Shown: positions 39,508-60,500 of the stretch, piece after piece
Layout of the letters: each line of letters starts with the position of its first letter
How positions within the stretch are numbered: the stretch's first letter is position 1
From: Candidatus Marinacidobacterales bacterium
GTDB taxonomy: Bacteria > Acidobacteriota > Vicinamibacteria > Marinacidobacterales > DATDRI01
Assembly: GCA_965226495.1 (NCBI GenBank)
Contig: OZ245365.1
Location: 5,529,783-5,593,782, forward strand
Direction of reading: 5' to 3'
Length of the DNA stretch: 64,000 nt
Notes under the pieces: model-generated
Seen by the model: only the letters and a program-made list of their open reading frames with translations
Told to the model about the DNA's origin: nothing
Databases searched by the model: none
Translations under genes and position numbers: made by a program

Positions 39508-39541
39508 GCATGCCACCTATTCCTCTCCTAATTCCTCCGAG

Positions 39542-41239: not shown

Positions 41240-41323
41240 TATAGCGGTAGTCGGCCGGAGTGGCCGGATCCTGACACCCGTCCTATACTACCGCCACCAT
41301 TCACCGGGAACCCGGGTTTCATC

Positions 41324-42461: not shown

Positions 42462-43694
42462 ATGGAGCTCTATGACTTGGGAGATCGCCCGGCGCTGGGA
42501 GAAGTTCCATCGAAGATGCACGCATTCACCGTACGGCAAGACCGTTTCGGAGAACCGCGCGATGCCTGGAAGCGAGAGGTCATCCCGACGCCCACGATCG
42601 GTGATCAAGAGGTTCTTGTCTACGTCATGGCGACAGGGATCAACTACAACAACGTCTGGGCCGCTCTTGGCAAACCCCTGGACGTGATCGCCGAGCGACA
42701 GAAGAAAGGCGAGCCGGAAGATTTTCACGCCGGCGGGAGCGACTGTTCGGGGATCGTCTGGAAAGTGGGTGAGAAGGTCACGAACGTCAAGCCGGGAGAC
42801 GAAGTCGTCGTCCATAGCGGTTGGTGGGAACCGGACGATCCGTGGGTCCTATCGGGCAAGGATCCCATGCTCGCGGAGAGCACGCGGATCTGGGGGTATC
42901 AGACCAACTACGGTAGCTATTGCCAATTCGCACGGGCGCAATCGCATCAATGCCAACCCAAGCCCAAACATCTGACCTGGGATGCAGCCGGGTGCTACAT
43001 GCTTTGCGCCTCCACCGCTTATCGAATGCTGATGGGTTGGTCCCCCAACGTCGTGGAGTCAGGAGACGTGGTACTGGTTTGGGGCGCAGCGGGTGGACTA
43101 GGAAGCATTGCCTTACAAATCGTCAAAGCCGCGGGAGGGCGGGCCGTCGCGGTCGTCTCCGACGATGCCAAGAAAGAGTTTTGCCTCGAGCACGGAGCGG
43201 TAGGGGTCATCAATCGCAAGAACTTCGACCACTGGGGAGCCATGCCGAACACGGCCAGCCCTGAGTACGGAGCGTGGGCGAAGGGTGCGCGGTCCTTCGG
43301 CAAAGCCTTATGGGAGGCCCTCGGCGAGAGGACGAATCCACGAATCGTTTTCGAGCATCCGGGTGAGGCGACGCTTCCGACTTCGATCTTCGTCGCCGCC
43401 ACCGGCGGCATGGTCGTTATATGCGCCGGGACCACCGGATACACCGCGACCATGGACCTTCGTTATCACTGGATGCGTCAAAAGCGATTTCAAGGAAGCC
43501 ACTTGTCCAATGACGAACAGGCGGCGGCCATCAATCAGCTCGTCATCGATGGCAAAGTTGACCCCTGCCTTTCGAAGACTTTGTCTTTCGACGAGATCGG
43601 TGAGGCTCATCAATTGATGCATGAGAACCGTCATCCGTACGGAAACATGGCCTGTCTGGTGAACGCGACGGAGCCCGGGCAAGGCGCATCGTAG
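42462..43694 (+). CDS. ccr: Crotonyl-CoA carboxylase/reductase-family enoyl reductase (MDR superfamily)
   Basis: [25 protein letters not shown] is the characteristic Ccr segment. NADPH-binding [19 protein letters not shown]. Confidence 0.72.
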
Positions 43695-44229: not shown

Positions 44230-45719
44230 TGGAGTCACTGCGAAACCCGATCGTCCTCGGGAGCGTCGCCCTCTACATGGCTGTGTGCGTCGGCATGGGC
44301 ATCTGGGCACTCCAACGAACGAAGTCGACGCGCGACTTCTTCATGGCCGGTCGCAACCTCGGCATGCTCGTTACCGGGGTGGCTCTTTTCTCCAGCATGA
44401 TGAGTGGATTCGGTTTCGTGGGAGGCCCTGGCCTCGTGTACCTCATGGGGATGAGCTCGGTTTGGATGATCGCAACGGTGCCCGCCGGCTGGGCAGTCAC
44501 CGATTTTCTGGTCGCCAAACGTCTACGAGTATTTGCGGGCGTCTTCGACACCATCTCCCTCCCCGACGCGGTGGCGGCCCGATACGGCAGCGAGACAAGC
44601 CGCCTTCTTACTGCGGTTGCTCTCCTCTTGGGTGTCATGGGCTACCTGGCCACACAGATACTCGCCATGGCGATCGTGTTGCAAACGATCCTCCAAAACT
44701 CGCTCGGCGAGATCGGACTGGTGACCTGCGCGGCGATCGCCTGTACGGTCCTCGTTTTCTACAGTGTCACTGGTGGGATCATCGCATCCGTCTACACCGA
44801 TATCGTGCAGGGCACGGTGATGGTCGTGGCGGGTGTGCTCATTTTTTTCACTGCCATCTCTGTATTCGAAGGTGGCGGGAACGCGGCGACGACGATGATC
44901 ATGAACGATGATCCAGAGGCGATCGGTCCCTGGGGAACGCTGGGCATGATCGGCTGTCTCTCTTGGTTCTTCATGTTCACCGTGGGCAATGCCGGACAAC
45001 CTCACATCGTGACCAAAGGCATGATGATCCGGCGGCTCCAAGACTATCAATACATTCCGCTCATTTCCGTTTTCGGATACACCCTGACCGCACTACTTTG
45101 GGTCAGCATCGGACTCGTGATGCGAGCACTGGTCCTCCAGGGGGCTCACCCCGAGCTCGCTACGGCCGACGCCGCCGCACCGGAGTTTCTCCAACACTAC
45201 GCCCATCCGATCCTTGCTGGTTTGGTTTTCGCGGCGCTGTTTGCCGCCATCATGTCGACGGCGGACGTCTTCCTCAATATCGGGGCCGCCGCCGCCGTCC
45301 ACGACATCCCGCGGGCGATCCTCCGCCGTCCCCTCGCGAACGAGCTCTTCTGGGCTCGCGCGGGCACGATTGTCATCGCGGTCGTCGCTCTACTCTTCGC
45401 GATGTACTCCTACTATGAGAACGCTCGTTTTGTCGCGTTGCTGGGCGCTTTCGGATGGGGTACTTTCGGAGCGGCGCTGGTGCCGGTGGTCGCCATCGGG
45501 TTCAATTGGAAACGGGCTACACCTTTGGCGGCTAACGTCGCCATCGTATCGAGTCTGCTCGTGAACTTTGGTATCGAAGTCTTCGACGTCAGCATCCCTC
45601 ATAACATTCACGGCGGCACGATTTCGTTGCTGGTTTCCTTATTCCTGTTTTTCACAATCTCTTTTGCTTCGACCCCGCCGAAATTGAGTGCCGACGTCGA
45701 AGCTGCGATGGACATCTGA
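44226..45719 (+). CDS. Sodium:solute symporter (SSS family)
   Basis: Starts MMESLRNPIVLGSVALYMAVCVGMGIWALQRTKSTRDFFMAGRNLG, the SSS N-terminus, with about 13 TM helices. The track ORF start at 44013 is an out-of-context extension. Confidence 0.85.
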   Translation: MMESLRNPIVLGSVALYMAVCVGMGIWALQRTKSTRDFFMAGRNLGMLVTGVALFSSMMSGFGFVGGPGLVYLMGMSSVWMIATVPAGWAVTDFLVAKRLRVFAGVFDTISLPDAVAARYGSETSRLLTAVALLLGVMGYLATQILAMAIVLQTILQNSLGEIGLVTCAAIACTVLVFYSVTGGIIASVYTDIVQGTVMVVAGVLIFFTAISVFEGGGNAATTMIMNDDPEAIGPWGTLGMIGCLSWFFMFTVGNAGQPHIVTKGMMIRRLQDYQYIPLISVFGYTLTALLWVSIGLVMRALVLQGAHPELATADAAAPEFLQHYAHPILAGLVFAALFAAIMSTADVFLNIGAAAAVHDIPRAILRRPLANELFWARAGTIVIAVVALLFAMYSYYENARFVALLGAFGWGTFGAALVPVVAIGFNWKRATPLAANVAIVSSLLVNFGIEVFDVSIPHNIHGGTISLLVSLFLFFTISFASTPPKLSADVEAAMDI

Positions 45720-46994
45720 TGCCGACGAAACTCCTCAACTTCCTTTTGTTGATTCTCCTCGCGGTGCCGTCCTTCCCACAGGGGTTGCCTAGCGCAAAGC
45801 CCGAGGATGTCGGCATGTCGACGGCGCGACTGGAGCGCATCCGCCCGGTCATGCAGGCCTATGTCGATGAGGGAAAGGTGCCCGGCATGATCACCGCCGT
45901 GGCACGGCGGGGGAAGCTGGTCCATGTCGATCAGCTGGGAATGATGGACCTCGAGCCAGGGAAGAAGATGAGATCCGACACCATCTTCCGCATCTACTCC
46001 ATGACCAAGCCGGTTACCGCCGTGGCGATGATGATCCTCTATGAGGAGGGGCGGCATCGCTTGAACGAACCGGTCTCGAAGTACCTCCCCGAATTGCAGA
46101 ACTTGACGGTCTAGCTGGGGGGGGCTGGGCAAGAATCTGCGCACGGAGCCGGCGAGGCCGATGACGATCAAGCACCTCCTCCTTCACACCTCAGGTTTGA
46201 TCTATGGAGCCGATGAGCCCGGAGTCCCCCAACTCTACCGGGACGCCGAGATCTGGGAAGCGGTCAGCCTTGAGGACTTCGTCGACAAGCTTGCGGGGCT
46301 TCCGCTTCTCGCCCAACCGGGAACGGAGTGGAATTATGGCGTATCGACGGACGTTCTCGGTCGATTGGTAGAAGTCCTTTCCGGAGAACGTTTCGAAGAA
46401 TTCCTGGAAGAGCGCATTTTTCTGCCCCTCGGGATGGTGGACACGGCCTTCTACGTTCCGGACGAAAAGCTCGACCGCTTCGCAGCCAACTACCAAGCCA
46501 CACCAGAGGGTGGCTTGAAGCTCATCGACTCGCCCAAAAACAGCGAGTTCCGAAATCCGAATCCAGTGCCCTACGGCGGTCAAGGCCTGGTCTGCACCGT
46601 CGGCGACTTCGTACGTTTCGCCCAGATGCTCGCCAACGGTGGAGAGCTCGACGGGGTTCGGATCCTCGGACGCAAGACCGTAGACTTCATGATGCTCGAC
46701 CATTTGGGACCCGAGCTGGGGCCCGCGCCGCTCGGCGAGGCCGCGGGTTGGTACGGGATGAGCCCCGAAGGCTTGGGCTTCGGACTTGGCGGCTCCGTCG
46801 TGCGCAACGTCGCTCAGAACTCCTTGATCGGCTCGACCGGCGACTTTTCCTGGGGCGGGGTAGCGAGTACCTACTTCTGGATCGATCGGAGCGAAGCGCT
46901 CATCGCCGTGCAGTTCACCCAACTCATGCCCTCCGACAAGTATCCGATCCGTGCCGAGATGAAAATCCTCACCAATCAAGCCATCATCGACTGA
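45719..46994 (+). pseudogene. Beta-lactamase-family serine hydrolase interrupted by an in-frame TAG plus a frameshift at a G8 homopolymer (46117-46124)
   Basis: Part 1 (45719-46114) carries the signal peptide and SMTK (SxxK) motif and ends ...LPELQNLTV*. Part 2 continues in another frame: GGLGKNLRTEPARPMTIKHLLLHTSGL...WNYGVSTDVLG... Removing one G alone does not remove the TAG. The stop of the SSS gene overlaps the ATG (TGATG). Confidence 0.7.
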
Positions 46995-47012: not shown

Positions 47013-48152
47013 ATGACACAAGACGTTTTCGCTCCCCAACTGAGCATCGGACCTCGCGTCCGCAAGTCACCCTACTTCGACGCCACGTTGCGGTGGGGGG
47101 TCAAAGCCTTCACGATTTACAACCATATGTACATGCCGACCGTCTTTACCGATCCGGTGGACGAGTACTGGAAGCTCGTGAAGAACGTCACGTTATGGGA
47201 CGTGGCCTGCGAGCGACAGGTCGAGATCACCGGTCCCGACGCAGCCAGGTTCGTCCAGCTCTTGACACCGCGGAATCTCGCGAAATGCGCGGTAGGTCAG
47301 TGCAGGTACGTGATCTTCACGACAGAGGACGGCGGGATTCTGAACGACGCGGTCCTGCTACGCCTCGGCGAGAACCAGTTCTGGCTCTCCCCGGGGGACG
47401 GCGACGTGCTCCTATGGGCGCAAGGCGTCGCGGTGAACTCCGGGATGGACGTCACTATCGACGAGCCCGATGCGTCACCACTCCAGCTTCAAGGGCCGAA
47501 GGCGCCTCTGGTGGCCCAAGCCCTTTTCGGTGACCGGGCACTCGACCTCTCCTACTACCACTTACGGGAGACTGAGCTCGACGGGATTCCACTTGTCTTA
47601 TCTCGCACCGGCTGGAGCGGCGAGCTCGGCTACGAGCTCTTCTTGAGAGATCGCCGCCAGGGCGATGCCCTTTGGGAAAAAGTCATGACGGCAGGCAAAC
47701 CATACGGCATCGCCCCCATCGCGCCGAATCTCATTCGGAGCGTCGAGGGTGCCATCTTTTCTTACGTCTCCGACATCACGCGCGAAGACAATCCATTCAC
47801 CATCGGTTTCGATCGCATGGTCGATCTCGACCATGACTTCATCGGCCGCCAGGCGCTCACAAAGATCAAAGCAGATGGCGTCAAGCGCCGCTTGGTAGGT
47901 GTCGAGATCTCCGGCGATCCGTTACCCGGGAACGATCAATTCTGGTATGTAACGGTCGGCGGAAAGAGGGTCGGACGTGTGACTCGATGCGTTCACTCGC
48001 CTCGATTGAAGAAGAACATCGGCTTCGTCAACGTGCCGACCGAATATTCCGAAGCCGGTTCGAAGCTCACCATCGCCGTGCCTTCAGGCGACGCCGAGGC
48101 CACGGTGGTACCGACGCCGTTCGTCGCGTCTCAGAAGAAGATCCCACGGTAA
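47013..48152 (+). CDS. Aminomethyltransferase-family (GcvT-like) folate-binding protein
   Basis: GcvT fold pattern (…LWDVACERQVEITGPDAARFVQLLTPRNL..., GWSGELGYELF...). 379 aa. Confidence 0.72.
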   Translation: MTQDVFAPQLSIGPRVRKSPYFDATLRWGVKAFTIYNHMYMPTVFTDPVDEYWKLVKNVTLWDVACERQVEITGPDAARFVQLLTPRNLAKCAVGQCRYVIFTTEDGGILNDAVLLRLGENQFWLSPGDGDVLLWAQGVAVNSGMDVTIDEPDASPLQLQGPKAPLVAQALFGDRALDLSYYHLRETELDGIPLVLSRTGWSGELGYELFLRDRRQGDALWEKVMTAGKPYGIAPIAPNLIRSVEGAIFSYVSDITREDNPFTIGFDRMVDLDHDFIGRQALTKIKADGVKRRLVGVEISGDPLPGNDQFWYVTVGGKRVGRVTRCVHSPRLKKNIGFVNVPTEYSEAGSKLTIAVPSGDAEATVVPTPFVASQKKIPR

Positions 48153-48159
48153 CCCGCGC

Positions 48160-49776
48160 TCATTTACCGTCCGCGAACTGCTCTCTGAGCTTCGTTTTCA
48201 AGAATTTTCCTGTCGATGTACGGGGGATCGCTTCCACGAACTCGTAGGCATCGGGGATCCACCACTTGGCGAATTTGGGCGCGAGAAAAGCGCGGAGCTC
48301 TTCGGCCGTGGCCTTCGCTCCTTCTTTGAGAACCACAACGGCGAGAGGGCGTTCTTGCCATTTGGGATCGGGGATCGCGATGACCGCCGCCTCCTGAACC
48401 GCTTGGTGACCCATGAGCGCTCCCTCAAGATCCACGGAGCTGATCCACTCGCCCCCCGATTTGATAAGGTCCTTCGTGCGATCGGTGATCTTGACGTAGC
48501 CTTCGGGATCGATCGTCGCTACGTCTCCCGTACAGAACCACCCGTCTTCGGTCCATCGGTCTCGCTCGGACACCTTGAAGTAGCTTGACGCGACCCAGGG
48601 TCCGCGAACCTGAATTTCTCCCATCGTCTTTCCGTCCCACGGAACTTCACCGTCTTCGGAGACGGCGCGCAGATCCACCAGCGGAGAAGGTATACCTTGC
48701 TTCGCGCGGTAGGCGTATCGCTCGTCCTCTGAGAGATCCCTCATGCTGGCCTTTACCTTGCTCAACGTCCCCAGGGGTGTCGTCTCGGTCATGCCCCACG
48801 CCTGGATGACCTCGATACCGTGACGATCGAACGCTCGGATCAATGTTTCTGGGACGGCGGATCCTCCGACCAAGGCCCGCATTCCTGGAGAGAGGGTCCA
48901 ACGGTCCGGAGTCTTATCCAGCTCTTGCACCATCCCGAGCCAGATGGTGGGAACGCCCGCGGTGACCGTGACCTTCTCTTTTTCGTATAGATCCAGGAGA
49001 CTTGGTGGGTCCAAGTGCGGACCGGGGAACACCAGCTTACAACCGACGAGAGTCACGGTGAATGGAAGCCCCCAGCAATTGACGTGGAACATCGGCACCA
49101 CCGGCAAGACGACGTCCCGCTGGGAAAGTCCCATCATGTCTTCGAGTGCACAGGCAAAGGAATGCAGCACGAGAGCGCGATGGGAGTACACGACGCCCTT
49201 GGGACGGCCCGTGGTGCCGGAGGTGTAGCAGAGGCCGGCCGCATCGTTCTCCTCGATCTCCGGTTCCTCGAAATCTCCAGTGGCACGATCCAGTAGCTTT
49301 TCGTAGCTTTCACAACCTTCGGGGATCGCGTCCTCCGAATGAGAGACCACGAAGATACGCTTGAATTTAACGCGGTCGGCGAACTTCTCGAAGAGTGGCA
49401 GCAAGACATCATCGACGATCAGGAACCGATCTTCGGCGTGCTCGACGATGTAGACCAAGTCGTCGGGGTGAAGGCGGAGATTCAGCGTGTGGACGACCCC
49501 ACCGGCAGCCGGAATCCCAAAGTAGGCCTCCAGGTGTGCGTGATGATTCCACATGAACGTCGCCACGCGGTCGCCGCGATTGAGACCCGCTTTGAGCAAC
49601 CCCTCGCTCAGAGCTCGAGACCGGCGTTCGATGTCCGCATACGTGTGCCGCCGGAGCGACTTGTCGGGTTCCTGCGAAACGATCTCGACTCGAGCGAAGA
49701 GCTTCGCAGCCCGCCGGAGGAGGTGGGTCAACGTGAGAGGGTAGTTCATCATGTTCCCTTGCATGCATCCCTCCAT
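48160..49776 (-). CDS. AMP-dependent acyl-CoA synthetase (fatty-acid--CoA ligase family)
   Basis: LCYTSGTTGRPKGVVYSHR (AMP-binding motif I), and Gly-rich/DxxR/K motifs further on. Probable start MMNYPLTL (about 49752). Confidence 0.85.
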   Translation of the reverse strand: MEGCMQGNMMNYPLTLTHLLRRAAKLFARVEIVSQEPDKSLRRHTYADIERRSRALSEGLLKAGLNRGDRVATFMWNHHAHLEAYFGIPAAGGVVHTLNLRLHPDDLVYIVEHAEDRFLIVDDVLLPLFEKFADRVKFKRIFVVSHSEDAIPEGCESYEKLLDRATGDFEEPEIEENDAAGLCYTSGTTGRPKGVVYSHRALVLHSFACALEDMMGLSQRDVVLPVVPMFHVNCWGLPFTVTLVGCKLVFPGPHLDPPSLLDLYEKEKVTVTAGVPTIWLGMVQELDKTPDRWTLSPGMRALVGGSAVPETLIRAFDRHGIEVIQAWGMTETTPLGTLSKVKASMRDLSEDERYAYRAKQGIPSPLVDLRAVSEDGEVPWDGKTMGEIQVRGPWVASSYFKVSERDRWTEDGWFCTGDVATIDPEGYVKITDRTKDLIKSGGEWISSVDLEGALMGHQAVQEAAVIAIPDPKWQERPLAVVVLKEGAKATAEELRAFLAPKFAKWWIPDAYEFVEAIPRTSTGKFLKTKLREQFADGK

Positions 49777-50054: not shown

Positions 50055-51336
50055 TCACCGGTCTTGAAACGTTTCGTCGGAGCGGATCCCGAGCCAGAGA
50101 AGAGCGGCGATCCAACTCACCACAGCGGCGCTTCCCAAGGCGAAAGACCAGCCGAACCAACTAACCAGCAAAGGGACCAAGGGTGTACAGATGACGCCAC
50201 CCAAGTTGGTCCACATGTTCATCACTCCGCTTGCCGAGCCCGCATGGCGCCCCGAGACGTCCACGATGGACGACCAGTAGGCGCCCTCGGTGAGCTCACC
50301 GAATCCGAAACACGACGAAAGCGCGAGGACCGCGTGCCCGGTATTGGCACCGATCACGAGTGTAATGCCGGATAGCGTCATCCCGATGAGGCCCACCCAC
50401 CTTCTACCCCAACGTCGTCCGATGCGAATCGACAAGCGGTCGGTAATGTGTCCCCCGACCGGCGCCGCGATCCCGCCCACGATGAAGGGCATGCTCGCGA
50501 AGAAACCGCTTTCCAGTATCGTGAACCCTCGCACGTCGATCAGATACAAGAAAACCAGAATACGAAATATAGAAGACGTAGCCGTAGCAGAAGTAGCTTA
50601 TCGAAAGGAGGAAAACGTTCTTGTTCCTGAACAATAGCCACGGATTCGCTGCGGTGGGCGTCGAAACGGTGGTTTCTTCTCCACCTTGGGAAATGATCGC
50701 TAGCTCTCCGCGCGTCACGGCGCGGTGATCCTCCGGTCGCTCGGTGGCGTACCAGCGGTACAACACGGCGATCAAGAAGGCGAAACCGGCGGCCACGTAG
50801 AACGCGTTACGCCACCCTACTGTCACCATCAACGACGAAATCACGGGCGGCGTAAAGGCGGAACCGATCGATAGCCCGCCGATCAAAAGAGCGAGCGGGA
50901 AAGCTCGCCCGTTCGAAGGAAACCAGTTTGCTACCGCCCGGGCCGCTACCGGATAAGTGGGTGCTTCCACGACGACCCCCAGGAGGAAGCGCAACACGAG
51001 CAAAGAAACTAGCGCGGCGAACCCGCCGGGAACGAGCAGACCGGGAACCAACCCGCTCAAGACGGTGAAGATTCCCCAGAAGAAGGCCGCTCCCCATAGA
51101 ACCCGCCACGCCCCGAAACGGTCCCCAATCCAACCGGCCGGAATCTGGCAGATGGTATAGCCGATCATGAAGCTGCTGAAGACCCAACCCATCTGCTGTT
51201 CAGACAGGTCGAGCTCGGGCATCATGAACGCCGAGGCAACGGAGATGTTCATCCGCTGCAGATAGCTGACGAAGCTAAACCCGACCAAGAGGGCCAGGAT
51301 CTTCCACCGAACTCTGGAAGCCCTGGAAGGGGACAT
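50055..51336 (-). pseudogene. MFS transporter with an apparent +1 frameshift around 50575 (or sequencing error)
   Basis: N-half ORF (51336-50404) has TM1-6 and ends ...YFCYGYVFYI then nonsense. C-half ORF (50549-50055) resumes ...IFRILVFLYLIDVRGFTILESGFFASMPF... in the +1 frame (TTG/ATA region). Together they make one 12-TM MFS. Confidence 0.65.
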
Positions 51337-51376: not shown

Positions 51377-52000
51377 CTACGGACCGACCCATTCGACGTG
51401 TGCGTACTCGCCGCTCTTGCCGGACAGGTCCCAGTTCCGCCCCCAGTCGCGAAAGCGGCTCTTGGTCCCGGTGCACACGACGACGTCCGGAGACATCCAG
51501 TAGCTCGTGTTCTTTATCTCGGTGACGCCTAGGCCACCGGCTCCGACGATGGGCTCGATTAAGCCGTCGATCGTCTTCGGGATGGTCACTTGCCATCCTC
51601 TGCCCTTTTTCTCGAAGCTGATGGGCACTTGCTTGCTGCCGAGAAAGTTGGCGATCATGATCCGGAACCAACCGACCGGGCCACCAGCCTGACCGGAAAG
51701 GATGTCGGTCATGGCCTTGGCGGCGGCGGGACTCGCCTGGTCGTCGATGTAGAGAGCGAAGGTCCAGCCACCTTCGGCGAGAGGACCGGGCACCTCCATC
51801 AGCACCGCCGCCTTCAGGCCGTCCAGCTTCTCGTCACCCGCATGCCCCTTGTGGATGTTGAGCCCCCACCAAGTCTGACAAACACCGTGGCTGGGCTTCG
51901 CCTTACCGAGGGAAACAACGCAGGGACAAAAAACCTCGCAGTTGCAACTGAGTGCCAGCTCTCCTTTGATCTTCCAAGGTGCCACTTCTTCCTTCTTCAC
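51377..52000 (-). CDS. DUF1326-like protein (CNCxxxCPC N-terminal motif; recalled from memory)
   Basis: ELALSCNCEVFCPCVVSLGKAKPSHGVCQTW. 207 aa, soluble. 28 bp downstream of the DUF2182-like membrane-protein gene. Confidence 0.6.
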   Translation of the reverse strand: MKKEEVAPWKIKGELALSCNCEVFCPCVVSLGKAKPSHGVCQTWWGLNIHKGHAGDEKLDGLKAAVLMEVPGPLAEGGWTFALYIDDQASPAAAKAMTDILSGQAGGPVGWFRIMIANFLGSKQVPISFEKKGRGWQVTIPKTIDGLIEPIVGAGGLGVTEIKNTSYWMSPDVVVCTGTKSRFRDWGRNWDLSGKSGEYAHVEWVGP

Positions 52001-52028
52001 GTTCGTTCCTTTCGCCGTTACGTTGTCG

Positions 52029-52844
52029 CTAGTTCATCAGGCCCAACCTCAACAAGTACAGCCCCCAAACTACGAACAACACGCCCGCCCCGCGTCCGAT
52101 CTGGTGCCCCGATGGGGCCAGTTTCTCAACCAGAACCAAGCCAGCGATCGCCGCCAGCCATAGAAGGTTCATGACCCCGGCGACGAACATCAGAGCCATC
52201 AACGCCCAGCAGCAACCTACGCAGAACGCCCCATGCTCGAGCCCCATCACCAGTGCCCCCGACCTACCAGGCCGCCAAGACGTCATGAAGAAGGCGAGAG
52301 GAGACCGACAGTGAGTCAGACATGCGTTCTTCAGTCGACTCCATTGAAAGAGGCCGGCCACCACCAAGACGAGTCCGCCGAAGATCACATTGGTGCTCAC
52401 GCCCGCCGCCGAAACGAGTGCCGCATGGTGAAGGCCCCATTGAGCCACCGCGCCAAGCGCGCTGAAACCGGTCCACACGACGATGTAGCCGAGCAAGAAC
52501 GCCGCCGTGGGGGAGAAGGGTTCACGATCGGGATCTGTTTGTTGTTTCCGGTTGATCTTCGCAAAAGTCAAAATCATCTGAGAGGCCGAAGGAACCATCA
52601 TCGCGATCATCATGACCGTCCACATCACGAACAGAAACAGGAAGTCCCGGACGCTCCACGCCTCGATGTGCGGATGGGTGATGCTCGTGCCAACAAATGT
52701 ATGCGCGGGGTTTGTCGCCAGGTAGGCAGTGTAGGTCCAGGCGAGGAGCGACACACCGATGAGGCCACTCATCACGACCGCGCGGTCGCGACTCAATACC
52801 GACTCCAGGGCGGTAACTCCTTCATGCGTATGATGCGTCACCAT
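52029..52844 (-). CDS. DUF2182-like integral membrane protein (predicted metal-binding; recalled from memory)
   Basis: Six TM helices, His/Cys-containing loops (HAFCVGCCWALMALMFVAGVMN, THCRSP). Paired with the DUF1326-like gene. Confidence 0.6.
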   Translation of the reverse strand: MVTHHTHEGVTALESVLSRDRAVVMSGLIGVSLLAWTYTAYLATNPAHTFVGTSITHPHIEAWSVRDFLFLFVMWTVMMIAMMVPSASQMILTFAKINRKQQTDPDREPFSPTAAFLLGYIVVWTGFSALGAVAQWGLHHAALVSAAGVSTNVIFGGLVLVVAGLFQWSRLKNACLTHCRSPLAFFMTSWRPGRSGALVMGLEHGAFCVGCCWALMALMFVAGVMNLLWLAAIAGLVLVEKLAPSGHQIGRGAGVLFVVWGLYLLRLGLMN

Positions 52845-52900: not shown

Positions 52901-54192
52901 CTAATCGCCGTCTTTCTCGAAACGGGACAGCGAAAAGAATGGGTCGGGGGTCCGCTTTTCTAGCACGAGCTCGGCAACCTGTTCGCCAACCGCGGGGCCG
53001 TGTTTAAACCCGTGTCCGGAGCCTCCACCAACCAGCCACACGTTCTCTAAACGTGGATGGCGATCGAGTATGAAGTGTGAGTCGGGACTGTTCTCGTACT
53101 GACACACGCGCGCCTCGAGAAGGGGAGCCCCCTTGAGGCCGGGGAATCGGAACTCGACATAGTCACGTGCCGCCGATAGTGCGGTCGGCGAGTAGGTTCT
53201 TTCACCGTCAGTAGGATCGAACGGCTCGCCTCGACCATCGTCTGCGATTTTGAATCCCCGCCACTCGCTTCCTGGAATGCCATAGAAGAGACGCTCGCCG
53301 TTATCGATCCATACCGGAAGGGTGTGGCCCGAGTAGCGAGAGTCTCCAGGCGGCGTGCCAAAGTAAAAGATTTCCTGTCGCGTCGGGCGGATGCGATCTC
53401 CTAGGACATCGGGGAAAAGCCTGCCGAGCCAAGGACCGCAGGCGAAAACGAACTGGTCGCCGGAAACGAGGGACCCATCCGGGAGCAGGACCCCTCCCAA
53501 CTTTCCGTTCTCATCGGGTCTCGGTTTAGCCGCACTCTGAAGGTACTGACCTCCTTCGGCGAGGAAGCCTTCGAGAACAGCGGCGCAAGCCCGACGCGCC
53601 AGCAAGTAGCCCGCGTCTTGTTCCTGGATCGCCCAACGGACGCCCTCGAAATGGATCTGGGGAAACCGTCGTCGCGCCTCTGCCACATCGAGCTCCTCGA
53701 ACCGGAGTCCGACGTCGCGCAATATGGGTAGAGATGCTTTTTCGTAGCCGTCGTTCTCCCCAACCATCCATAAGGCGCCGGTCGGTCGGTAAAGCGGACG
53801 GTTCCAGAGTTTCTCGTTCTCTTTCCAGAGCGCGAGCGAACGGGCCACCATCTCGGCGTAGATCCGATCCGGACCGTAGGTTCCCCGAATGACCCGCGAC
53901 TCGCCCCCCGAGCTTGCCCGGGAGTTCCCGGTCCCCAGGTGTCGAGGAGAGTCACCTTGGCACCGCTCCTCGAGAGATGAAGCGCAGTCCAACCCCCGAA
54001 GGCTCCGGCGCCTACCACAACCACTCGCGGTCCTTGGCGCGTCGCGACCTTAGCCGGCTTCCCCTGCGAGCCGAATCCCGGAATCATTGCCACTGCGGCA
54101 CTCGCCTTCAAAAGCGAGCGGCGTGAAACGCCGCCTTCCTTTCGGCTAGGACCACCCCCCTTTTTCGCCATCAGACCTCCTCGGTCCCGCAA
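52901..54192 (-). pseudogene. Sarcosine-oxidase-like FAD oxidoreductase (DAO family) with twin-arginine signal; 1-nt deletion frameshift near 53940 (or sequencing error)
   Basis: Upstream ORF has SRRSLLKASAAVAMIPGFG (a Tat motif) and RVVVVGAGAFGGWTALHLSRSGAKVTLLDTWGPG. Downstream ORF continues NSRASSGGESRVIRGTYGPDRIY... through a C-terminal HGFKHGP. The junction sits in the CCGGGAACTCCCGGG run. Confidence 0.65.
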
Positions 54193-54277: not shown

Positions 54278-55420
54278 ATGGTCAAGACCCGTGCTCCGGT
54301 TGTGGGCTCACTCGGCGCCAAGGGGACGCGCCGGCCATTCGAGCAAGCCTCTCCGCTTCCAGGCGATTTCTTCCATTCTTCAGAGGTCCTTTCCGCAGAG
54401 CTCGACCGAATCTTCGCAAGAACGTGGATCGTCGTCGGCCGCGAGGAAGACATTTCCGAGCCCGGGAGCTATTTCACTCGTGAGATCGGTAAGGAGTCCA
54501 TCGTATTGCTCCGTGGTACCGGCGGTGAACCCAGAGCGTTCTTCAACGTCTGCCGCCACCGAGGTGCCAAGCTCTTAGAGAGCTGTGACGGAGCCAAGCT
54601 CAAGAAGATCCAATGCCCTTATCATGCCTGGACCTACGATCTCGACGGGCGACTCGCCGCCGCTCCGCTCATGGAGTCGACGCCCGGCTTCTCGAGGGAG
54701 GATTATCCACTAGTTCCTGTAAGGGTCGAAACATGGGAAGGTTTCCTTTTCGTGAACTTGGATGACGATGTTGAGCCTCTCGAGCCGCAACTCGCAGGCT
54801 TCCCCAACGTCTCGCGCTTCCAGCTTCCCAACCTGCGCCGGGGCGGGCGCGTCGCCTACGATGTGGCCGCCAACTGGAAGCTCATCGGCGAGAACTACAA
54901 CGAGTGCTACCACTGCGCTCTCGTTCATCCTCAACTTCATCGCATCAGCCACTATCAAAGTGGCGGGAGAATAGAATCGGGGATGAATTTCACCGGAGGT
55001 CCCATGACCCTCAACGAGGGGTTTACGACCATGACCATGAGCGGGAGGAGCACACGCCCTCCCATTCCTGATCTCGTTCCAGAGGATCATCGGACCGTTC
55101 ACTATTTCCACCTCTACCCAGGCTTTCTGCTCAGCCTCCATCCTGACTACGTCTTGACGCACACCGTTTGGCCGGTCGACACATCCCACAGCCGCGTGAT
55201 TTGTGAATGGCTCTTTACGCAAGATGCCATGGCCCGGGAAGACTTCGACCCCAGCGATGCTATTGAGTTTTGGGACGTCACCAACCGGCAAGACTGGGAA
55301 CTTTGCGAGATCGCTCAGAAAGGAGTCCGATCTCGAGGCTACCGGCCCGGCCGCTATCAAGCGGGCGAGAGCTCGGTCCACGCCTTCGACAACTGGTGCC
55401 TCGATCAACTGGAGAGCTAA
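54278..55420 (+). CDS. Rieske [2Fe-2S] non-haem-iron oxygenase alpha subunit (GbcA/CntA/VanA-like demethylase/monooxygenase family)
   Basis: CRHRGAKLLESCDGAKLKKIQCPYHAWTY (CxH-X17-CxxH) and the catalytic NYNECYHCALVHPQLH (Fe ligands). 380 aa. Confidence 0.8.
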   Translation: MVKTRAPVVGSLGAKGTRRPFEQASPLPGDFFHSSEVLSAELDRIFARTWIVVGREEDISEPGSYFTREIGKESIVLLRGTGGEPRAFFNVCRHRGAKLLESCDGAKLKKIQCPYHAWTYDLDGRLAAAPLMESTPGFSREDYPLVPVRVETWEGFLFVNLDDDVEPLEPQLAGFPNVSRFQLPNLRRGGRVAYDVAANWKLIGENYNECYHCALVHPQLHRISHYQSGGRIESGMNFTGGPMTLNEGFTTMTMSGRSTRPPIPDLVPEDHRTVHYFHLYPGFLLSLHPDYVLTHTVWPVDTSHSRVICEWLFTQDAMAREDFDPSDAIEFWDVTNRQDWELCEIAQKGVRSRGYRPGRYQAGESSVHAFDNWCLDQLES

Positions 55421-55576
55421 CTAACCGACCGCTCTCGGTGCTGGCATCGAAGCTCCTACCTGTGGTACTCAACTCCGCCGGGGGCGATCGTTCAGAGGTC
55501 AGCCACGATCGTGCCCACGCGCTTAAATCGTAATCATCCAAACCCACTGTGCTGCTAGCCGAGGAGATCCAAACCC

Positions 55577-57253
55577 ATGCCCAAGTCTGCCATCCCTCCC
55601 GACATAGAGATCGCGCAATCGGCCAAGATCCGACCCATCGTGGACGTAGCCTCTGAGCTAGGACTGGCGCCCGAAGACATCGAACCTTACGGCCACTACA
55701 AGGCCAAGGTGCGTCTCGAGGTGTTGGATCGAGCCAAGAAGAAAGCTCGTTTGGTCTTGGTGACCGCTACCAGCCCCACTACAGCGGGGGAGGGGAAAAC
55801 CACCATGACCGTCGGGCTGGCTCAAGCGCTCAGGCGGCTGGGTCACAAGGCGGCGCCGTGCATCCGTGAGCCGAGTCTCGGTCCGCTCTTTGGTATGAAG
55901 GGCGGGGCGGCAGGAGGCGGTTACTCTCAAGTCATCCCGATGGAAGACATCAATCTGCATTTCACCGGTGACTTTCATGCCATTACTTCTGCGCACATGC
56001 TCCTTTCCGCCACCATCGACAACCATCTTCACCAAGGGAACACACTGGGACTGGACCCCCGCCGGATCCCATGGACTCGATGCTTGGACATGAACGACCG
56101 AGCCCTGAGACAGGTCGTGGTTGGGTTGGGCGGCCCGACCGGAGGTGTTCCACGGCAAGAAGAGTATGTCATCACCGCCGCGAGCGAGATCATGGCGATC
56201 CTTTGTTTGTCGACGGACCTTGCCGATCTAGAAAAGAGGCTCGGGAACATCCTCGTGGGCTACAACCAGGAGCGAAAGCCGGTCCGGGCGCGCGAGCTCG
56301 AGGTCCAAGGCGCGATGACGATCCTTCTCAAAGATGCCTTGAAGCCCAACCTGGTACAAACGCTCGAAGGAGGACCCGCCTTTATTCACGGCGGACCCTT
56401 CGGGAATATCGCGCATGGATGTAACTCTATCCTGGGAACTCGAATGGCCATGGCTTTGTCCGACATCGTCGTCACCGAGGCCGGTTTCGGAAGTGATCTG
56501 GGAGCCGAGAAGTTCTGCGATATCAAGTGTCGCGCGGCGGGTCTCACTCCCGACGCTGCGGTCATCGTGACTACGGTAAGAGCACTCAGGTACAACGGTG
56601 GTCAACCGAAGGGTGAGACCGGGGAGAATTCAAAAGCGCTCGAGGCTGGCTTCGCCAACTTGGATAAGCATATCGAAAACGTCGCTACGTTCGGCTTGCC
56701 TGCTATCGTCGCGGTGAATCGCTTCCCCACGGACACCGACGCCGAAATTGAACAAGTGATTACCCACTGCGAGAAGGTCGGCGCCGCCGCGGCAGATGCC
56801 GATATCTTCTCGAGAGGGGGAGAAGGGGGAGAAGCCTTGGCCGAGGCGGTGGTCGAGGTGCTGGAAACTAAGAAGTCCGAATTCCGGTTCGCCTACGAAG
56901 TCGACGAGCCGATCAAAGACAAGGTCCACGCGGTGGCCACCAAGATGTACGGTGCCGACGGTGTCGACTACACCGCCAAAGCGGAGAAAGCGATCGCCGC
57001 TTTAGAGCGAAACAGTCTTTCCAATCTTCCCGTCTGTATCGCCAAGACGCAGTATTCACTCAGCGACGAGCCGACCAGGCTCGGGCGCCCACGAGGTTTC
57101 CGGATCCAAGTGCAAGACGTGATCGCCTCCGCCGGAGCAGGATTCCTAGTCGTGTTGGCAGGGTCGGTGATGAGAATGCCGGGGCTTCCTCGCGTTCCGG
57201 CCGCTACTCAGATGCACATCGGCCCCGATGGAAAAACGGTGGGACTCTCGTAA
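55577..57253 (+). CDS. fhs: Formate--tetrahydrofolate ligase
   Basis: TPTTAGEGKTTMTVGLAQAL (the PxGEGKxT signature). 558 aa. Colinear with FTHFS. Confidence 0.95.
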   Translation: MPKSAIPPDIEIAQSAKIRPIVDVASELGLAPEDIEPYGHYKAKVRLEVLDRAKKKARLVLVTATSPTTAGEGKTTMTVGLAQALRRLGHKAAPCIREPSLGPLFGMKGGAAGGGYSQVIPMEDINLHFTGDFHAITSAHMLLSATIDNHLHQGNTLGLDPRRIPWTRCLDMNDRALRQVVVGLGGPTGGVPRQEEYVITAASEIMAILCLSTDLADLEKRLGNILVGYNQERKPVRARELEVQGAMTILLKDALKPNLVQTLEGGPAFIHGGPFGNIAHGCNSILGTRMAMALSDIVVTEAGFGSDLGAEKFCDIKCRAAGLTPDAAVIVTTVRALRYNGGQPKGETGENSKALEAGFANLDKHIENVATFGLPAIVAVNRFPTDTDAEIEQVITHCEKVGAAAADADIFSRGGEGGEALAEAVVEVLETKKSEFRFAYEVDEPIKDKVHAVATKMYGADGVDYTAKAEKAIAALERNSLSNLPVCIAKTQYSLSDEPTRLGRPRGFRIQVQDVIASAGAGFLVVLAGSVMRMPGLPRVPAATQMHIGPDGKTVGLS

Positions 57254-57279
57254 GAATGAAAGTAGCCTGGGGTCCCGTA

Positions 57280-58488
57280 TCACACACTAGGTCTCTTCAG
57301 AACGCTCCGCTTTCTTTCCGGATCGAAAAAGGGAAGCGGTGCGACTTTGGCAGCCACACGCTTGCGCGCGTACTCAATGGTCATCTCGAGTTCGACGCGC
57401 GTGCCCGGCTTAGCGTGCTCGGACCTGACGCTCGCAAGCGCGATGAACTTCTTCAGAAGCTTTGACCAACAGCTACTGGTTGCCCGACCGACCTGCCGAT
57501 CGTCGACGTAAACGGGAACCGGTTCCCGCGAAGCAACGTTCGACAGTTGCGGGAGCAAACCCACTTCCTCGTGGAGCTTCTCTAGCTCCTCCCACTTGAT
57601 TTCAAGCCCCACGAAGGCGTATGTCGAGCCCTTCTCCTTCTCTTTCTCGAGCGCCTCGCGACCGATGAAGTAGGGCTTGTTGAAATTCACCGCCCATCCC
57701 AGTCCTATTTCGTAAGGAGAAGACTTTTGCGACTCGATGAGAGCCTTCTCGGCGCTAATGAAGTCCACCTCGATGAGCGGATACCCGGCTTCGATGCGAG
57801 CCAGATCCAACGCAAGCATGCCGGCCGGAGTGATACCCCGACCCTTCCCGGCTTCCATCAAGAGATCCCATACCTGCTCGGCGTGATCCCGCGAAACCCA
57901 AACCTCGTACCCCAAATCGCCCGTGAAGCCGGTTCGGCTTACCCAGGTTGGAATGTTTCCCAAATTGGTGCGCGTGATCCAGAAGTACTTTAGATCGGAC
58001 AAATCGGAGCTCGAGAGCTCCATTAAGATCTCTCGCGAGCGCGGCCCTTGAAGAGCGAGCGCGCCCACTTGCTCGGAGAGATCTTCTATCTCCACTTCCA
58101 TTCCTTCGGCGTTCAGCTCGAACCACCGAAGCGTGGGGTCGGCAGCGGTGGCTCGAAAGGTGGTCTCGCCGAGACGCTGAAACGTGCCGTCTTGGATGAC
58201 TTTGCCTTCTCGATCACACCAAGGCACATAAAGGACCTGCCCTACTTTAGCCTTCGCCGCGTTCCTCGTGACGACACGGTTGACAAGCTTTGCCGCATCC
58301 CGGCCACGGATTTCGTATTTGAAGAGCGGAGAGACATCGATGAGGCCCGCGCCGTTCCGCATTGCGTGGTACTCCGGGTCATGAAAATCGTCGTAAGAGC
58401 TGGGAGCGAAGTACCCGGACCAATGACGCCAGTTCATACTGGTGCAGAGCACGGAAGTCCGAGAATGAAAGGGCGTTCCTACGGCCAT
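57280..58488 (-). CDS. Aminomethyltransferase-family (GcvT-like) protein
   Basis: GcvT-family fold (…YHAMRNGAGLIDVSPLFKYEIRGRDAAKLVNRVVT...GFTGDLGYEVWV...). 402 aa. Convergent with fhs. Confidence 0.78.
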   Translation of the reverse strand: MAVGTPFHSRTSVLCTSMNWRHWSGYFAPSSYDDFHDPEYHAMRNGAGLIDVSPLFKYEIRGRDAAKLVNRVVTRNAAKAKVGQVLYVPWCDREGKVIQDGTFQRLGETTFRATAADPTLRWFELNAEGMEVEIEDLSEQVGALALQGPRSREILMELSSSDLSDLKYFWITRTNLGNIPTWVSRTGFTGDLGYEVWVSRDHAEQVWDLLMEAGKGRGITPAGMLALDLARIEAGYPLIEVDFISAEKALIESQKSSPYEIGLGWAVNFNKPYFIGREALEKEKEKGSTYAFVGLEIKWEELEKLHEEVGLLPQLSNVASREPVPVYVDDRQVGRATSSCWSKLLKKFIALASVRSEHAKPGTRVELEMTIEYARKRVAAKVAPLPFFDPERKRSVLKRPSV

Positions 58489-58659
58489 GATGCCCTGGCT
58501 TGGAAGGTGGTCATAGAAAACTCCTCGTGGTCGGCAGTCTAGGTAGCCGCTTTTTTCGCGTCAACTCTACTACCTTATTACTATTGCCCATGCTATTCTC
58601 TTGGACCGCGTACCACAATGCAACCAGCGGTTCCATAATGTGGTTCGGATCGACCGGGT

Positions 58660-60246
58660 ATGGCAAAAAGCTACGACGTCATCGTCATCGGTGCGGGACA
58701 CAACGGCTTGGTGCACGCGGCCTATCTCGCAAAAGCCGGCAAGAAAGTTCTGGTGTTGGAACGTCGGCATCTCGTCGGCGGCGCCACCGTCACCGAGGAG
58801 ATCTACCCCGGTTTCAAGTACTCGGTTTGCTCCTACGTCGTGAGCCTTCTCCGACCGGAAATCATCGAAGACCTGGACCTTGCTAGCCACGGACTTCAGC
58901 TTCTTTCTCTCGACGGCACCTTCACTCCTCTTCCTAACGGCGACTACCTCGCCCGTTGGGGTGATCATGATAAGACGCGCCAAGAGCTGATCCGTCACTC
59001 CCGAAAGGACGCCGAGGCTTACGACCAGTTCGGAACGTTGATGTACCACCTTTCGCGGGCAGTTCGGTCCATGCTTTCCACGGTGCCTCCCGATCCCACC
59101 TCTTTCAAACCGTCCGATCTCGCCGGACTTGCACGAATCGGACATCAATTTCACGGCCTGGGAGAGGAGCGTCTCTACGATCTCACCAAGCTCATGACGA
59201 TGAGCTCCGTCGATTTCCTCGACGAATGGTTCGAGTACGAGCCGTTGAAGGCGACTATGGCTGCGAGCGGTATCATCGGTACGTTTCTCGGTCCCCGCTC
59301 GCCGGGAACGGCCTACGTCCTCCTCCATCACTACATGGGGGAGATCGACGGTGTCTTTCGTTCTTGGGGATTTCCGCGGGGGGGCATGGGTTCGGTCGCC
59401 GAGTCCATCGCTTCGTCGGCGAGAAGCCTCGGCGCTGAAGTTCGCACCGAAGCTCCCATCGCTCGTCTCCTCGTCAAGAATGGCAAGGCAGAAGGCGTGG
59501 TGCTCGAAAGCGGTGAGGAGATCCGTGCGCGAGCCGTCGCCTCGAGCCTGGATCCCAAGCGGACCTTCTTGAAACTGATCGAACCGAGCGATCTTGACTC
59601 CGATTTCGCGGAATCCGTACGTCGCTTCAAGATTCGTGGCTCTTCTGGAAAAGTGAACCTGGCGCTCGACGAGCTTCCCAACTTCACCTGTTTGCCTGGC
59701 GACGGCCCGCATCTCCGCGGATCGATCTCCATCAGTCCGAGCATCGACTACTTAGAGGAAGCCTACGACGACGCCAAGTACGGAGATTTTTCGAGAAAAC
59801 CGTACATGGACATCCTCATTCCCTCTGTAATCGATCCATCGATGGCCCCACCGGGAAAGCATGTGATGTCGATCTTCGTGCAATACGCCCCCTACCATTT
59901 GAAGGAAGGTACTTGGGAGGAAAAACGCGAAGCGTTCGGTGACGCCGTCGTGAATACGCTCAGTGAGTACGCGCCTAATCTAAAGAACTCCATTCTTCAT
60001 CGACAAGTGCTCACGCCTTGGGATCTCGAGCAGAAGATCGGGCTCACCGAAGGGAATATCTTTCATGGCGAGTTGACTATGGATCAACTCTTTTTCCTCC
60101 GACCCGTCCCCGGTTGGGCGAAGTATCGCACCCCTATTCGCAACTTCTATCTCTGCGGATCGGGAGCTCACCCAGGTGGGGGCGTGATGGGCTCACCGGG
60201 TAAGCTCGCCGCCCAAGAATTGCTAAAGGATTGGGAAAGCCTGTAG
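58660..60246 (+). CDS. FAD-dependent oxidoreductase, phytoene-desaturase (CrtI) family, paralog 1
   Basis: MAKSYDVIVIGAGHNGLVHAAYLAKAGKKVLVLERRHLVGGATVTEE (Rossmann GxGxxG) and the CrtI-family C-terminus ...GSGAHPGGGVMGSPG. Confidence 0.8.
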   Translation: MAKSYDVIVIGAGHNGLVHAAYLAKAGKKVLVLERRHLVGGATVTEEIYPGFKYSVCSYVVSLLRPEIIEDLDLASHGLQLLSLDGTFTPLPNGDYLARWGDHDKTRQELIRHSRKDAEAYDQFGTLMYHLSRAVRSMLSTVPPDPTSFKPSDLAGLARIGHQFHGLGEERLYDLTKLMTMSSVDFLDEWFEYEPLKATMAASGIIGTFLGPRSPGTAYVLLHHYMGEIDGVFRSWGFPRGGMGSVAESIASSARSLGAEVRTEAPIARLLVKNGKAEGVVLESGEEIRARAVASSLDPKRTFLKLIEPSDLDSDFAESVRRFKIRGSSGKVNLALDELPNFTCLPGDGPHLRGSISISPSIDYLEEAYDDAKYGDFSRKPYMDILIPSVIDPSMAPPGKHVMSIFVQYAPYHLKEGTWEEKREAFGDAVVNTLSEYAPNLKNSILHRQVLTPWDLEQKIGLTEGNIFHGELTMDQLFFLRPVPGWAKYRTPIRNFYLCGSGAHPGGGVMGSPGKLAAQELLKDWESL

Positions 60247-60447
60247 CAACTATGTGTGTTGATCGCCCCAGGGTCCCAGTGAACTACCGTCCCCGCCGGA
60301 GGGCAACGTGGCCAAGACGGCCCGGCAGGGCCGCCGGCCGGGAGGAATTGACTCATGAATTACACGGTCAAGGGAACCGGCCGGGTTTTTCGCCCGAGCG
60401 AAGCCTTGAAACGATGTCGTAGTCGCGAAGTCGACGGAGCATCAAGG

Positions 60448-60470
60448 CTTGGGGGTGGGGCCCCACTCGC
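60448..60470. repeat. Copy 4 of the GTGGGGGTGGGGCCCC motif (cttGGGGGTGGGGCCCCactcgc), preceded by gcgaagtcgacgg
   Basis: Shares the palindromic core GTGGGGCCCCAC and the upstream GCGAAG..CGACGG flank with the other three copies. Confidence 0.55.
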
Positions 60471-60500
60471 ATTAATCAAAGATTGGGAAGGCCTGTAGCC

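Follow-up and report, generated by a model that had tools for sequence, protein, structure and literature searches.

In this study, we focus on a two-gene cassette in a 64,000-nucleotide (nt) stretch of DNA from a Candidatus Marinacidobacterales bacterium (contig OZ245365.1; the whole 64-kilobase (kb) stretch is hereafter called the window), along with its relatives and its genomic surroundings in other prokaryotes. The cassette, which spans positions 51377-52844 and has both genes on the minus strand, is genuine, with both genes intact and conserved as a unit, and it is securely assigned as an Acidobacteriota (Marinacidobacterales-type) pair of the DmdE/DmdF kind, composed of a PF09948 membrane protein and a PF07040 soluble protein. 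An earlier note on this DNA had given exactly these coordinates, and its 28-nt spacer within the pair and 56-nt distance to a neighbouring flavin adenine dinucleotide (FAD) oxidoreductase open reading frame (ORF) are borne out. The pair consists of the following elements:

52029..52844, minus strand: PpoB2-family (PF09948, formerly DUF2182) polytopic membrane protein, DmdE-like, 271 amino acids (aa), described from Pfam, alignments, an AlphaFold 2 (AF2) model, and hydropathy
52001..52028, minus strand: spacer between the two genes, 28 nt, with a Shine-Dalgarno-like AAAGGAA before the GTG start
51377..52000, minus strand: DUF1326 (PF07040) soluble protein, DmdF-like, 207 aa

In Pfam searches, the membrane ORF matches PF09948 with 225.1 bits (cut-off 28.7, E 8.7e-67, profile positions 1-187 of 188) and the soluble ORF matches PF07040 with 153 bits (cut-off 25, E 1.2e-44, profile positions 2-176 of 177), scores far above the cut-offs that uphold the DUF2182 and DUF1326 assignments first made in the earlier note; the NCBIfam search returned a model for neither protein. 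The accompanying statement that both families are uncharacterised has to be corrected, since the current Pfam name of PF09948 is 'PpoB2, copper chaperone', after PpoB2 (PMC2855505), and the pair corresponds to DmdE/DmdF (PMC12992908); 'DUF2182 + DUF1326' should no longer be annotated as an uncharacterised cassette. The 271-aa start of the membrane protein is backed by a glutamate (E14) that is invariant across aligned homologues, and the DUF1326 start is ambiguous between a GTG at 52000 and a GTG at 51985. Compared with the orthologues in the closest genome (L005), the ratio of nonsynonymous to synonymous substitution rates (dN/dS) is 0.16 for the membrane gene and 0.07 for DUF1326, low values that imply purifying selection on both genes. 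An identical DUF1326 protein in the same gene order occurs in several independent public assemblies (L001-L004), and the nearest match in the species-level genome collection is a Candidatus Marinacidobacterales metagenome-assembled genome (MAG) with a 92% identical DUF1326 protein, an order placed by NCBI taxonomy within Acidobacteriota, Vicinamibacteria. Further close homologues are found in MAGs of marine Acidobacteriota, Myxococcota, Entotheonella, Chloroflexota, and Methylomirabilota.

In Roseobacters, DUF2182 and DUF1326 have been given the gene names dmdE and dmdF (Fu et al., EMBO J, February 2026; PMC12992908); there they are essential for DMSP demethylation, are always adjacent, and belong to an operon under DmdR control, together with dmdA, acuI, and a DinB-family gene. 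An older annotation of the Marinovum algicola plasmid pMaD9 labels both genes 'involved in DMSP breakdown' (DMSP, dimethylsulfoniopropionate), and the window proteins are 47% (DmdF) and 40% (DmdE) identical to their Marinovum counterparts. In addition, the window DUF1326 protein carries the C-terminal signature SRxRD[WF]GRNW (as SRFRDWGRNW), shared by the Marinovum copy and by 118 of 120 close homologues. Among 74 deep representatives only 1 has it, and the Bacillus, Ralstonia, Microvirga, and Rhodococcus copies all lack it.

Five cysteines are conserved in DUF1326 (C19-x-C21-x3-C25-P-C27, then C41), each in 73 of 75 representatives down to ~28% identity, and are also kept in the Bacillus, Ralstonia, Rhodococcus, and Sinorhizobium copies; the only other strongly conserved polar residue among the 75 representatives is one aspartate, D86. 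Hydropathy analysis revealed no hydrophobic segment, and the protein is therefore predicted to be cytosolic. In a confident AlphaFold model (predicted local distance difference test (pLDDT) score 94, predicted template modelling (pTM) score 0.90), the cysteines sit in the loop joining strands 1 and 2. By sequence, no solved structure gave a meaningful match to DUF1326, and the model itself appears to be a beta-rich, acetoacetate-decarboxylase-like barrel; however, the acetoacetate decarboxylase-like enzymes (PDB 4zbo, 3bh2, 4jm3) share only 7-12% identity with the window protein, are longer (~250 versus 207 aa), and have no confirmed counterpart of the cysteine knuckle between strands 1 and 2. 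A closely spaced CxCx3CxC motif with a fifth cysteine is typical of polynuclear Cu(I) or Zn sites, and the CxCx4CxC motifs of CopY and Mac1 are Cys-rich Cu(I)-thiolate motifs. Compared with the latter at the level of the motif, the DUF1326 knuckle, known here from its sequence, has a similar spacing but belongs to a different fold. Fusions of DUF1326 to a secretin, an aldehyde-oxidase hammerhead, or DinB, each seen in single metagenomic representatives only, were discarded as clues to function because they look like merged neighbouring genes.

For the membrane protein, hydropathy and the AF2 model (pLDDT 82) point to about seven hydrophobic helices instead of the six transmembrane segments originally counted. 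Across eight distant members from bacteria and an archaeon, including one partner-less copy, the invariant elements comprise an MWxxMMxAMMxP helix (M78/M82/M83), K172-x2-C175-x3-C179-x2-P (read in the window as K-x2-C175-x3-C179-RSP), C208-x2-C211-C212 within a transmembrane helix, and E240, so that the alignments give the family five invariant cysteines and an invariant Met-rich helix. According to the positive-inside rule, the CxxxC loop lies in the cytoplasm and two His-rich loops lie outside. Searches of solved structures found no relative of this protein by sequence or fold. Of the two peptides quoted in the earlier note, ELALSCNCEVFCPC is exact, whereas the other, which should read EHGAFCVGCCWALMALMF, had lost one G, the true string being HGAFCVGCC. 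Its proposal of a Cys-based metal/redox unit is still the most reasonable reading, given five invariant cysteines in each protein and the Met-rich helix in the membrane protein.

The association of the two families was examined in a sample of 80 genome loci found with DUF1326 motifs, in which genes were assigned by a codon-position guanine-cytosine filter together with direct tblastn. Both families lie within 1.6 kb of each other at 73 of the 80 loci; PF09948 is directly upstream of DUF1326 on the same strand, with a gap of -13 to +103 nt, at 63 loci, and lies upstream at 259-1153 nt at 5 more. Starting instead from PF09948 homologues, DUF1326 was next door in 3 of 3 cases. Five Chloroflexota loci (L035, L038, L042, L043, L045) have an enoyl-coenzyme A (CoA) reductase of the crotonyl-CoA carboxylase/reductase (CCR) family inserted between DUF1326 and the PpoB2-family gene. 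The tblastn search for PF09948 gave no match at 7 of the 80 loci, 4 of which hold two tandem DUF1326 genes; tandem paralogues with no PpoB2-family gene detected nearby were observed at L033, L041, L048, and L050 (Methylomirabilota/Rokubacteria, a Chloroflexota MAG, and an unclassified MAG). In the plasmid collection, the replicons matched by the two families number 129 and 130 in Ralstonia, 20 and 20 in Bacillus, and 6 and 6 in Rhodococcus, the exception being Sinorhizobium (58 versus 5), whose megaplasmids carry DUF1326 mostly without its partner. Distant pairs occur in Bacillus, Ralstonia, Microvirga, the haloarchaeon Natrinema, and Rhodococcus, and in all of these, as well as at L104, DUF1326 precedes the membrane gene, the reverse of the order in the DmdEF subfamily. 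The two families are strongly co-conserved, as the earlier note had anticipated.

The pair is embedded in a larger catabolic island, whose principal features are as follows:

41213-42109, plus strand: IclR-family regulator
42462..43694, plus strand: CCR-family enoyl-CoA reductase (TIGR01751, 549.6 bits, cut-off 378.6)
45719..46994, plus strand: beta-lactamase-like hydrolase, split into two frames
47013..48152, plus strand: GcvT-family demethylase, DmdA-like (best NCBIfam model DMSP demethylase NF009133, 359.7 bits, cut-off 410)
48160..49776, minus strand: acyl-CoA ligase, DmdB-like (best NCBIfam model 3-(methylthio)propionyl-CoA ligase NF005426, 665.8 bits, cut-off 822)
50055..51336, minus strand: major facilitator superfamily (MFS) transporter, 40 nt downstream of DUF1326, split into two frames
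52901..54192, minus strand: FAD oxidoreductase, monomeric-sarcosine-oxidase-like, with a twin-arginine motif; two ORFs in different frames match the N- and C-terminal parts of the DAO profile

The plus-strand genes converge on the pair in the order IclR, CCR, a sodium-solute symporter, the split beta-lactamase-like hydrolase, and the GcvT-family gene, and the acyl-CoA ligase follows the MFS transporter after 278 nt on the same strand as the pair. The DmdA-like gene, 3.2 kb from the pair on the opposite strand, encodes a protein with 39% identity to the DmdA annotated in Marinovum; among solved structures it matches 3tfh best (256 bits, versus 147 for the next GcvT), a structure that we take to be Pelagibacter DmdA. 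Three split genes (DAO-like, MFS, and beta-lactamase-like) lie within 9 kb of the otherwise intact island, and the MFS gene may hold two small indels around 50540-50570.

The FAD-oxidoreductase ORF stops 56 nt upstream of the PF09948 start. Compared with the intact L005 orthologue, this gene is broken near 53925 by a 1-nt deletion (AAA to AA), which cuts the twin-arginine translocation (Tat) signal and the GxGxxG FAD-binding N-terminus off the catalytic part, and the same break is present in assemblies L001-L003. Its dN/dS relative to L005 is still low (0.12-0.17), and the break is therefore recent, strain-specific, or an assembly error common to the database assemblies. The Tat flavoprotein had earlier been linked to the pair, a suggestion that is not supported: it is a neighbour in the window's own lineage only (L001-L003 and L005), which amounts to 1 of the 80 genome loci. 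Being lineage-specific and broken in the window, it was rejected as a functional partner, and co-transcription of the pair with its gene is possible. The promoter and terminator scan gave nothing beyond shuffle expectation except one promoter-like site upstream of the FAD-oxidoreductase gene; the region holds 9 terminator-like sites versus 6.3 expected from shuffles, none of them in the short gaps between the four genes. An Rfam scan of 40-64 kb returned no match. Among the scanned ORFs of the window, no gene for a copper oxidase, SBP56, SCO1, MauG, or tyrosinase was found.

Several further features of the window were observed. At 54278-62108 lies a one-carbon/methylamine-related cluster with a GbcA-like Rieske oxygenase, a formate-tetrahydrofolate (THF) ligase, two CrtO/amine-oxidase-like FAD enzymes, and a GcvT-family gene that resembles the C-terminal half of trimethylamine N-oxide demethylase; this cluster suggests demethylation of several onium compounds, not of DMSP alone. 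A pyridoxal-phosphate-dependent enzyme of Cys/Met metabolism (PF01053, 448 bits) is encoded at 38326-39516 on the minus strand, a few kb from the island, and a member of the same family lies near the L096 pair; a part in methanethiol assimilation would be speculation only. Further away, at 22790-26621, a transposase (HTH_38 plus rve integrase, 24544-23591, minus strand) stands between a CarboxypepD_reg ORF (22790-23731) and an outer-membrane beta-barrel ORF (24579-26621), and appears to be an insertion sequence that interrupts a TonB-dependent-receptor-like gene.

In other genomes, the surroundings of the pair were counted within 10 kb at the same 80 loci. The commonest neighbour is an enoyl-CoA reductase of the medium-chain dehydrogenase/reductase family (24 loci, 23 of them within 2 kb), of the CCR type in Acidobacteriota and Chloroflexota and of the AcuI type in Proteobacteria, followed by an acyl-CoA ligase (14), a betaine/choline/carnitine transporter (9), a DmdA-like gene (8), and a PF02574 homocysteine S-methyltransferase (7). 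With sodium-solute symporters included, at least one pathway marker is present at 39 of the 80 loci. The CCR-family reductase of Acidobacteriota lies divergently upstream of the pair, and at L008, for example, the pair is flanked directly by a CCR gene on the one hand and by DmdA-like and hydrolase genes on the other. Altogether, three distinct methyl-transfer systems adjoin the pair, namely DmdA-like, PF02574, and a corrinoid set. A PF02574 gene directly adjoining DUF1326 was observed at L006, L010, L018, L019, L023, L027, L031, and L099-L102, mostly without a DmdA-like gene, and its product may demethylate the same substrate by an alternative, homocysteine-dependent route. A molybdopterin oxidoreductase (Molybdop_Fe4S4 plus Molybdopterin) is encoded directly upstream of the pair in Entotheonella and a related lineage (L034, L036, L037, L099), and L099 also has EgtB/EgtD-like ergothioneine genes nearby.

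A second set of associations concerns copper and other metals. SBP56, a methanethiol oxidase of the periplasm, depends on copper and is matured with SCO1/SenC and MauG, by which its genes are typically accompanied (Eyice et al. 2018, PMC5739008). Two related metagenomic lineages have the pair directly beside such genes. At L094/L095, genes for SBP56, an SCO1/SenC-MauG fusion, PpoB2, and DUF1326 follow one another on one strand (L094 4678-9612), and at L097/L098 SBP56 and the SCO1/SenC-MauG fusion are convergent with and downstream of the pair (L097 8199-13137); in Marinovum, a dmdE-dmdF-ligase-dmdA-reductase cluster is closed by SBP56. Just downstream of the L094 genes, a corrinoid methyltransferase set (B12-binding, URO-D, DUF169) was also observed. 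Among more distant relatives, a solo DUF2182 gene with DsbB directly upstream lies in a Sulfitobacter copper island together with a P-type ATPase and CueR, the Bacillus pair is near a four-helix-bundle copper-binding protein, a thioredoxin-family gene, and TlpA, the Microvirga pair has a MerR regulator beside it and CusA near, and the Rhodococcus pair has a metal-chelate ATP-binding cassette transporter in its vicinity.

These surroundings make a role of the window pair in the catabolism of DMSP-type methylated compounds likely but indirect, its basis being neighbours that score below the family cut-offs together with recurring, differently arranged associations in several phyla. As the best explanation of the whole, we tentatively propose a thiophilic-metal relay serving DMSP-type demethylation islands. 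The PpoB2-family membrane protein would carry a thiophilic metal, most likely Cu(I), along its invariant ligands, from the cytoplasmic CxxxC loop through the CxxCC helix and the Met-rich helix within the membrane to the outer His-rich loops, and would exchange the metal on the cytoplasmic side with the five-Cys knuckle of DUF1326. This subfamily module may have been recruited to islands for the uptake and demethylation of methylated sulfur/onium compounds (DMSP type), where it would act as a source or buffer of copper for the thiol-oxidising end of the pathway (methanethiol oxidase, with SCO1/MauG maturation) and may also limit copper- and thiol-driven peroxide stress. Within this scheme, we infer which metal is carried and in which direction, that the two proteins touch each other, and which enzyme is the client. 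A more specific version, in which DmdE carries copper in the manner of PpoB2 and DmdE/DmdF are indispensable for DMSP demethylation because they route cytosolic copper, with DUF1326 as a Cu(I)-thiolate donor or buffer feeding SCO1/MauG and through them SBP56, seems to us rather doubtful.

A Cu(I) relay is favoured because the only genetically defined member of the family, PpoB2 of Marinomonas mediterranea, was found in 2007 to be needed for the specific delivery of copper to the tyrosinase PpoB1 and was the first COG5486 member with an assigned role (PMC2855505), because the invariant residues are classical soft-metal ligands arrayed from the cytoplasm to the outside, and because the pair adjoins methanethiol oxidase and its copper chaperone and occurs in copper islands. 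Furthermore, dmdE and dmdF mutants do not grow on DMSP, and deletion of dmdA partly rescues the dmdE mutant (PMC12992908); toxicity that is relieved by removal of DmdA fits a failure downstream of demethylation. Against the relay stand several points. SBP56 was found neither in the 64-kb window nor within 10 kb at the 80 genome loci, so that the link to methanethiol oxidase rests on three lineages, two of them related, and where SBP56 is present an SCO1 chaperone is already encoded. No pathway marker occurs at half of the loci, and the pair is also found in soil bacteria and archaea without DMSP context. The DmdA-like and DmdB-like proteins fall below the NCBIfam cut-offs, and the substrate may therefore not be DMSP. 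The five cysteines could just as well be redox thiols, or ligands of zinc or of an iron-sulfur (Fe-S) cluster, the fold of the membrane protein has no solved relative as support, and consumption of hydrogen peroxide (H2O2) is the sole biochemistry reported for DmdF (PMC12992908).

This last activity is the core of the peroxide defence proposed by Fu et al. (2026), in which DmdF itself would be a peroxidase- or catalase-like enzyme acting against H2O2 from demethylation and the membrane partner would be unrelated or supporting; it survives best among the alternatives, and we consider it unlikely. Purified DmdF from Roseobacter lacuscaerulensis consumed H2O2 with release of O2, and reactive oxygen species were raised in the dmdF mutant on DMSP, but the assay was qualitative (10 mg/ml protein, 1.76 M H2O2) and the cofactor was not identified (PMC12992908). 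An H2O2-producing oxidase does adjoin the pair in the window (DAO-like) and at L094/L097 (SBP56). However, such activity would be expected from any bound redox metal, the modelled acetoacetate-decarboxylase-like fold would be unlike that of any known peroxidase, and almost no polar residue besides the five cysteines and one aspartate is conserved. A peroxidase role also leaves the obligate membrane partner with its Met/Cys ligands and the copper phenotype of PpoB2 unexplained.

A thiol-disulfide or electron relay of the DsbD/CcdA type, from a cytosolic DUF1326 with dithiols or an Fe-S cluster through membrane cysteine pairs to periplasmic targets, appears quite unlikely. The invariant cysteine pairs in the cytoplasmic loop and the transmembrane helix would suit it, as would the DsbB gene upstream of the solo DUF2182 and the thioredoxin-family and TlpA genes near the Bacillus pair. 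Yet the membrane protein has no sequence or fold similarity to DsbD or CcdA, its invariant Met-rich helix suits metal binding better than electron transfer, and PpoB2 mutants show a copper-delivery phenotype (PMC2855505).

Two further alternatives are improbable to a similar degree. One takes DUF1326 as a small-molecule enzyme, a hydratase/lyase/decarboxylase-like barrel acting on an acryloyl- or methylthio-acyl-CoA-type intermediate, with the membrane protein as its metal inserter, as PpoB2 is for tyrosinase; conserved catalytic residues past the Cys cluster and D86 are lacking, the sequence appears to have no catalytic lysine of the acetoacetate decarboxylase kind, and the pair is also found without any such pathway genes. 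The other regards the pair as a module for general tolerance of heavy metals (Cu, Hg, or Cd) that lies in a catabolic island by coincidence, in keeping with distant relatives in metal-resistance islands (Sulfitobacter, Microvirga) and with roughly half of the related loci being devoid of pathway markers. Coincidence is at odds with the recurrence of DMSP-type adjacency, differently arranged, in Acidobacteriota, Chloroflexota, Proteobacteria, and unbinned lineages, with the subfamily-specific signature SRxRD[WF]GRNW, and with the DMSP-specific phenotype of the Roseobacter mutants (PMC12992908). That the pair is a decaying remnant in a pseudogene-accumulating region, as the three split neighbours might suggest, is extremely improbable, since both genes are full length relative to their profiles, keep all invariant residues, and evolve with the low dN/dS values given above.

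The more specific version, with DmdE/DmdF routing copper towards methanethiol oxidase maturation, would, if true, connect copper homeostasis with the marine organosulfur cycle. A further implication would be that DMSP-type demethylation operates in marine Acidobacteriota, Chloroflexota, Myxococcota, and Entotheonella with three methyl-acceptor systems that can replace one another (THF/DmdA-like, homocysteine/PF02574, and corrinoid). Demethylation of DMSP is one of the main routes by which sulfur and carbon flow in the sea, and of its components DmdE/DmdF are the newest and the least understood. The window locus places the pair in DMSP-type catabolic islands outside Proteobacteria, adding a new phylum and a new island architecture. 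Homology to a copper chaperone and recurrent adjacency to methanethiol oxidase offer a concrete, testable mechanism where the sole earlier proposal was a qualitative 'peroxidase' activity.

One of the closest known systems is DmdE/DmdF of R. lacuscaerulensis, with which the window pair shares the same two Pfam families, the membrane gene in first position, tight spacing, and the vicinity of a DmdA-like demethylase and an acyl-CoA-level reductase; the C-terminal DmdF signature, present in a Roseobacter copy (Marinovum), is the basis for assignment to the same subfamily. There are clear distinctions as well. The window pair belongs to Acidobacteriota, its reductase is a CCR-family enzyme 7.7 kb away in place of the Roseobacter AcuI, and, unlike in the Roseobacter operon, its DmdA-like gene lies on the opposite strand and scores under the NCBIfam cut-off. 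The Marinovum DmdR-type regulator has no match in the window, where an IclR-family gene is present instead, and the Roseobacter DinB-like ORF matches L081, L083, and L084 only, not the window. Whereas homologues outside Rhodobacterales were reported to be unlinked to DMSP/acrylate genes (PMC12992908), the window pair sits in an island of probable DMSP type; the same paper mentions neither copper, cysteines, nor PpoB2, nor methanethiol oxidase as a client.

Compared at the family level, PpoB2 resembles the window membrane protein in belonging to PF09948, in being polytopic, in its His/Met/Cys metal-type motifs, and in having a presumed partner encoded next to it, but that partner is DUF1326 in the window, where neither a tyrosinase nor another copper oxidase gene was found among the scanned ORFs. 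The third comparison is with the mtoX-SCO1/SenC-mauG operon (PMC5739008). The window is without SBP56, SCO1, and MauG, and no similarity of the pair to these proteins was detected in sequence or fold; nevertheless, exactly this gene set stands beside the pair at L094/L095 and L097/L098, and the operon concerns the copper and methanethiol end of DMSP demethylation, as the pair appears to do.

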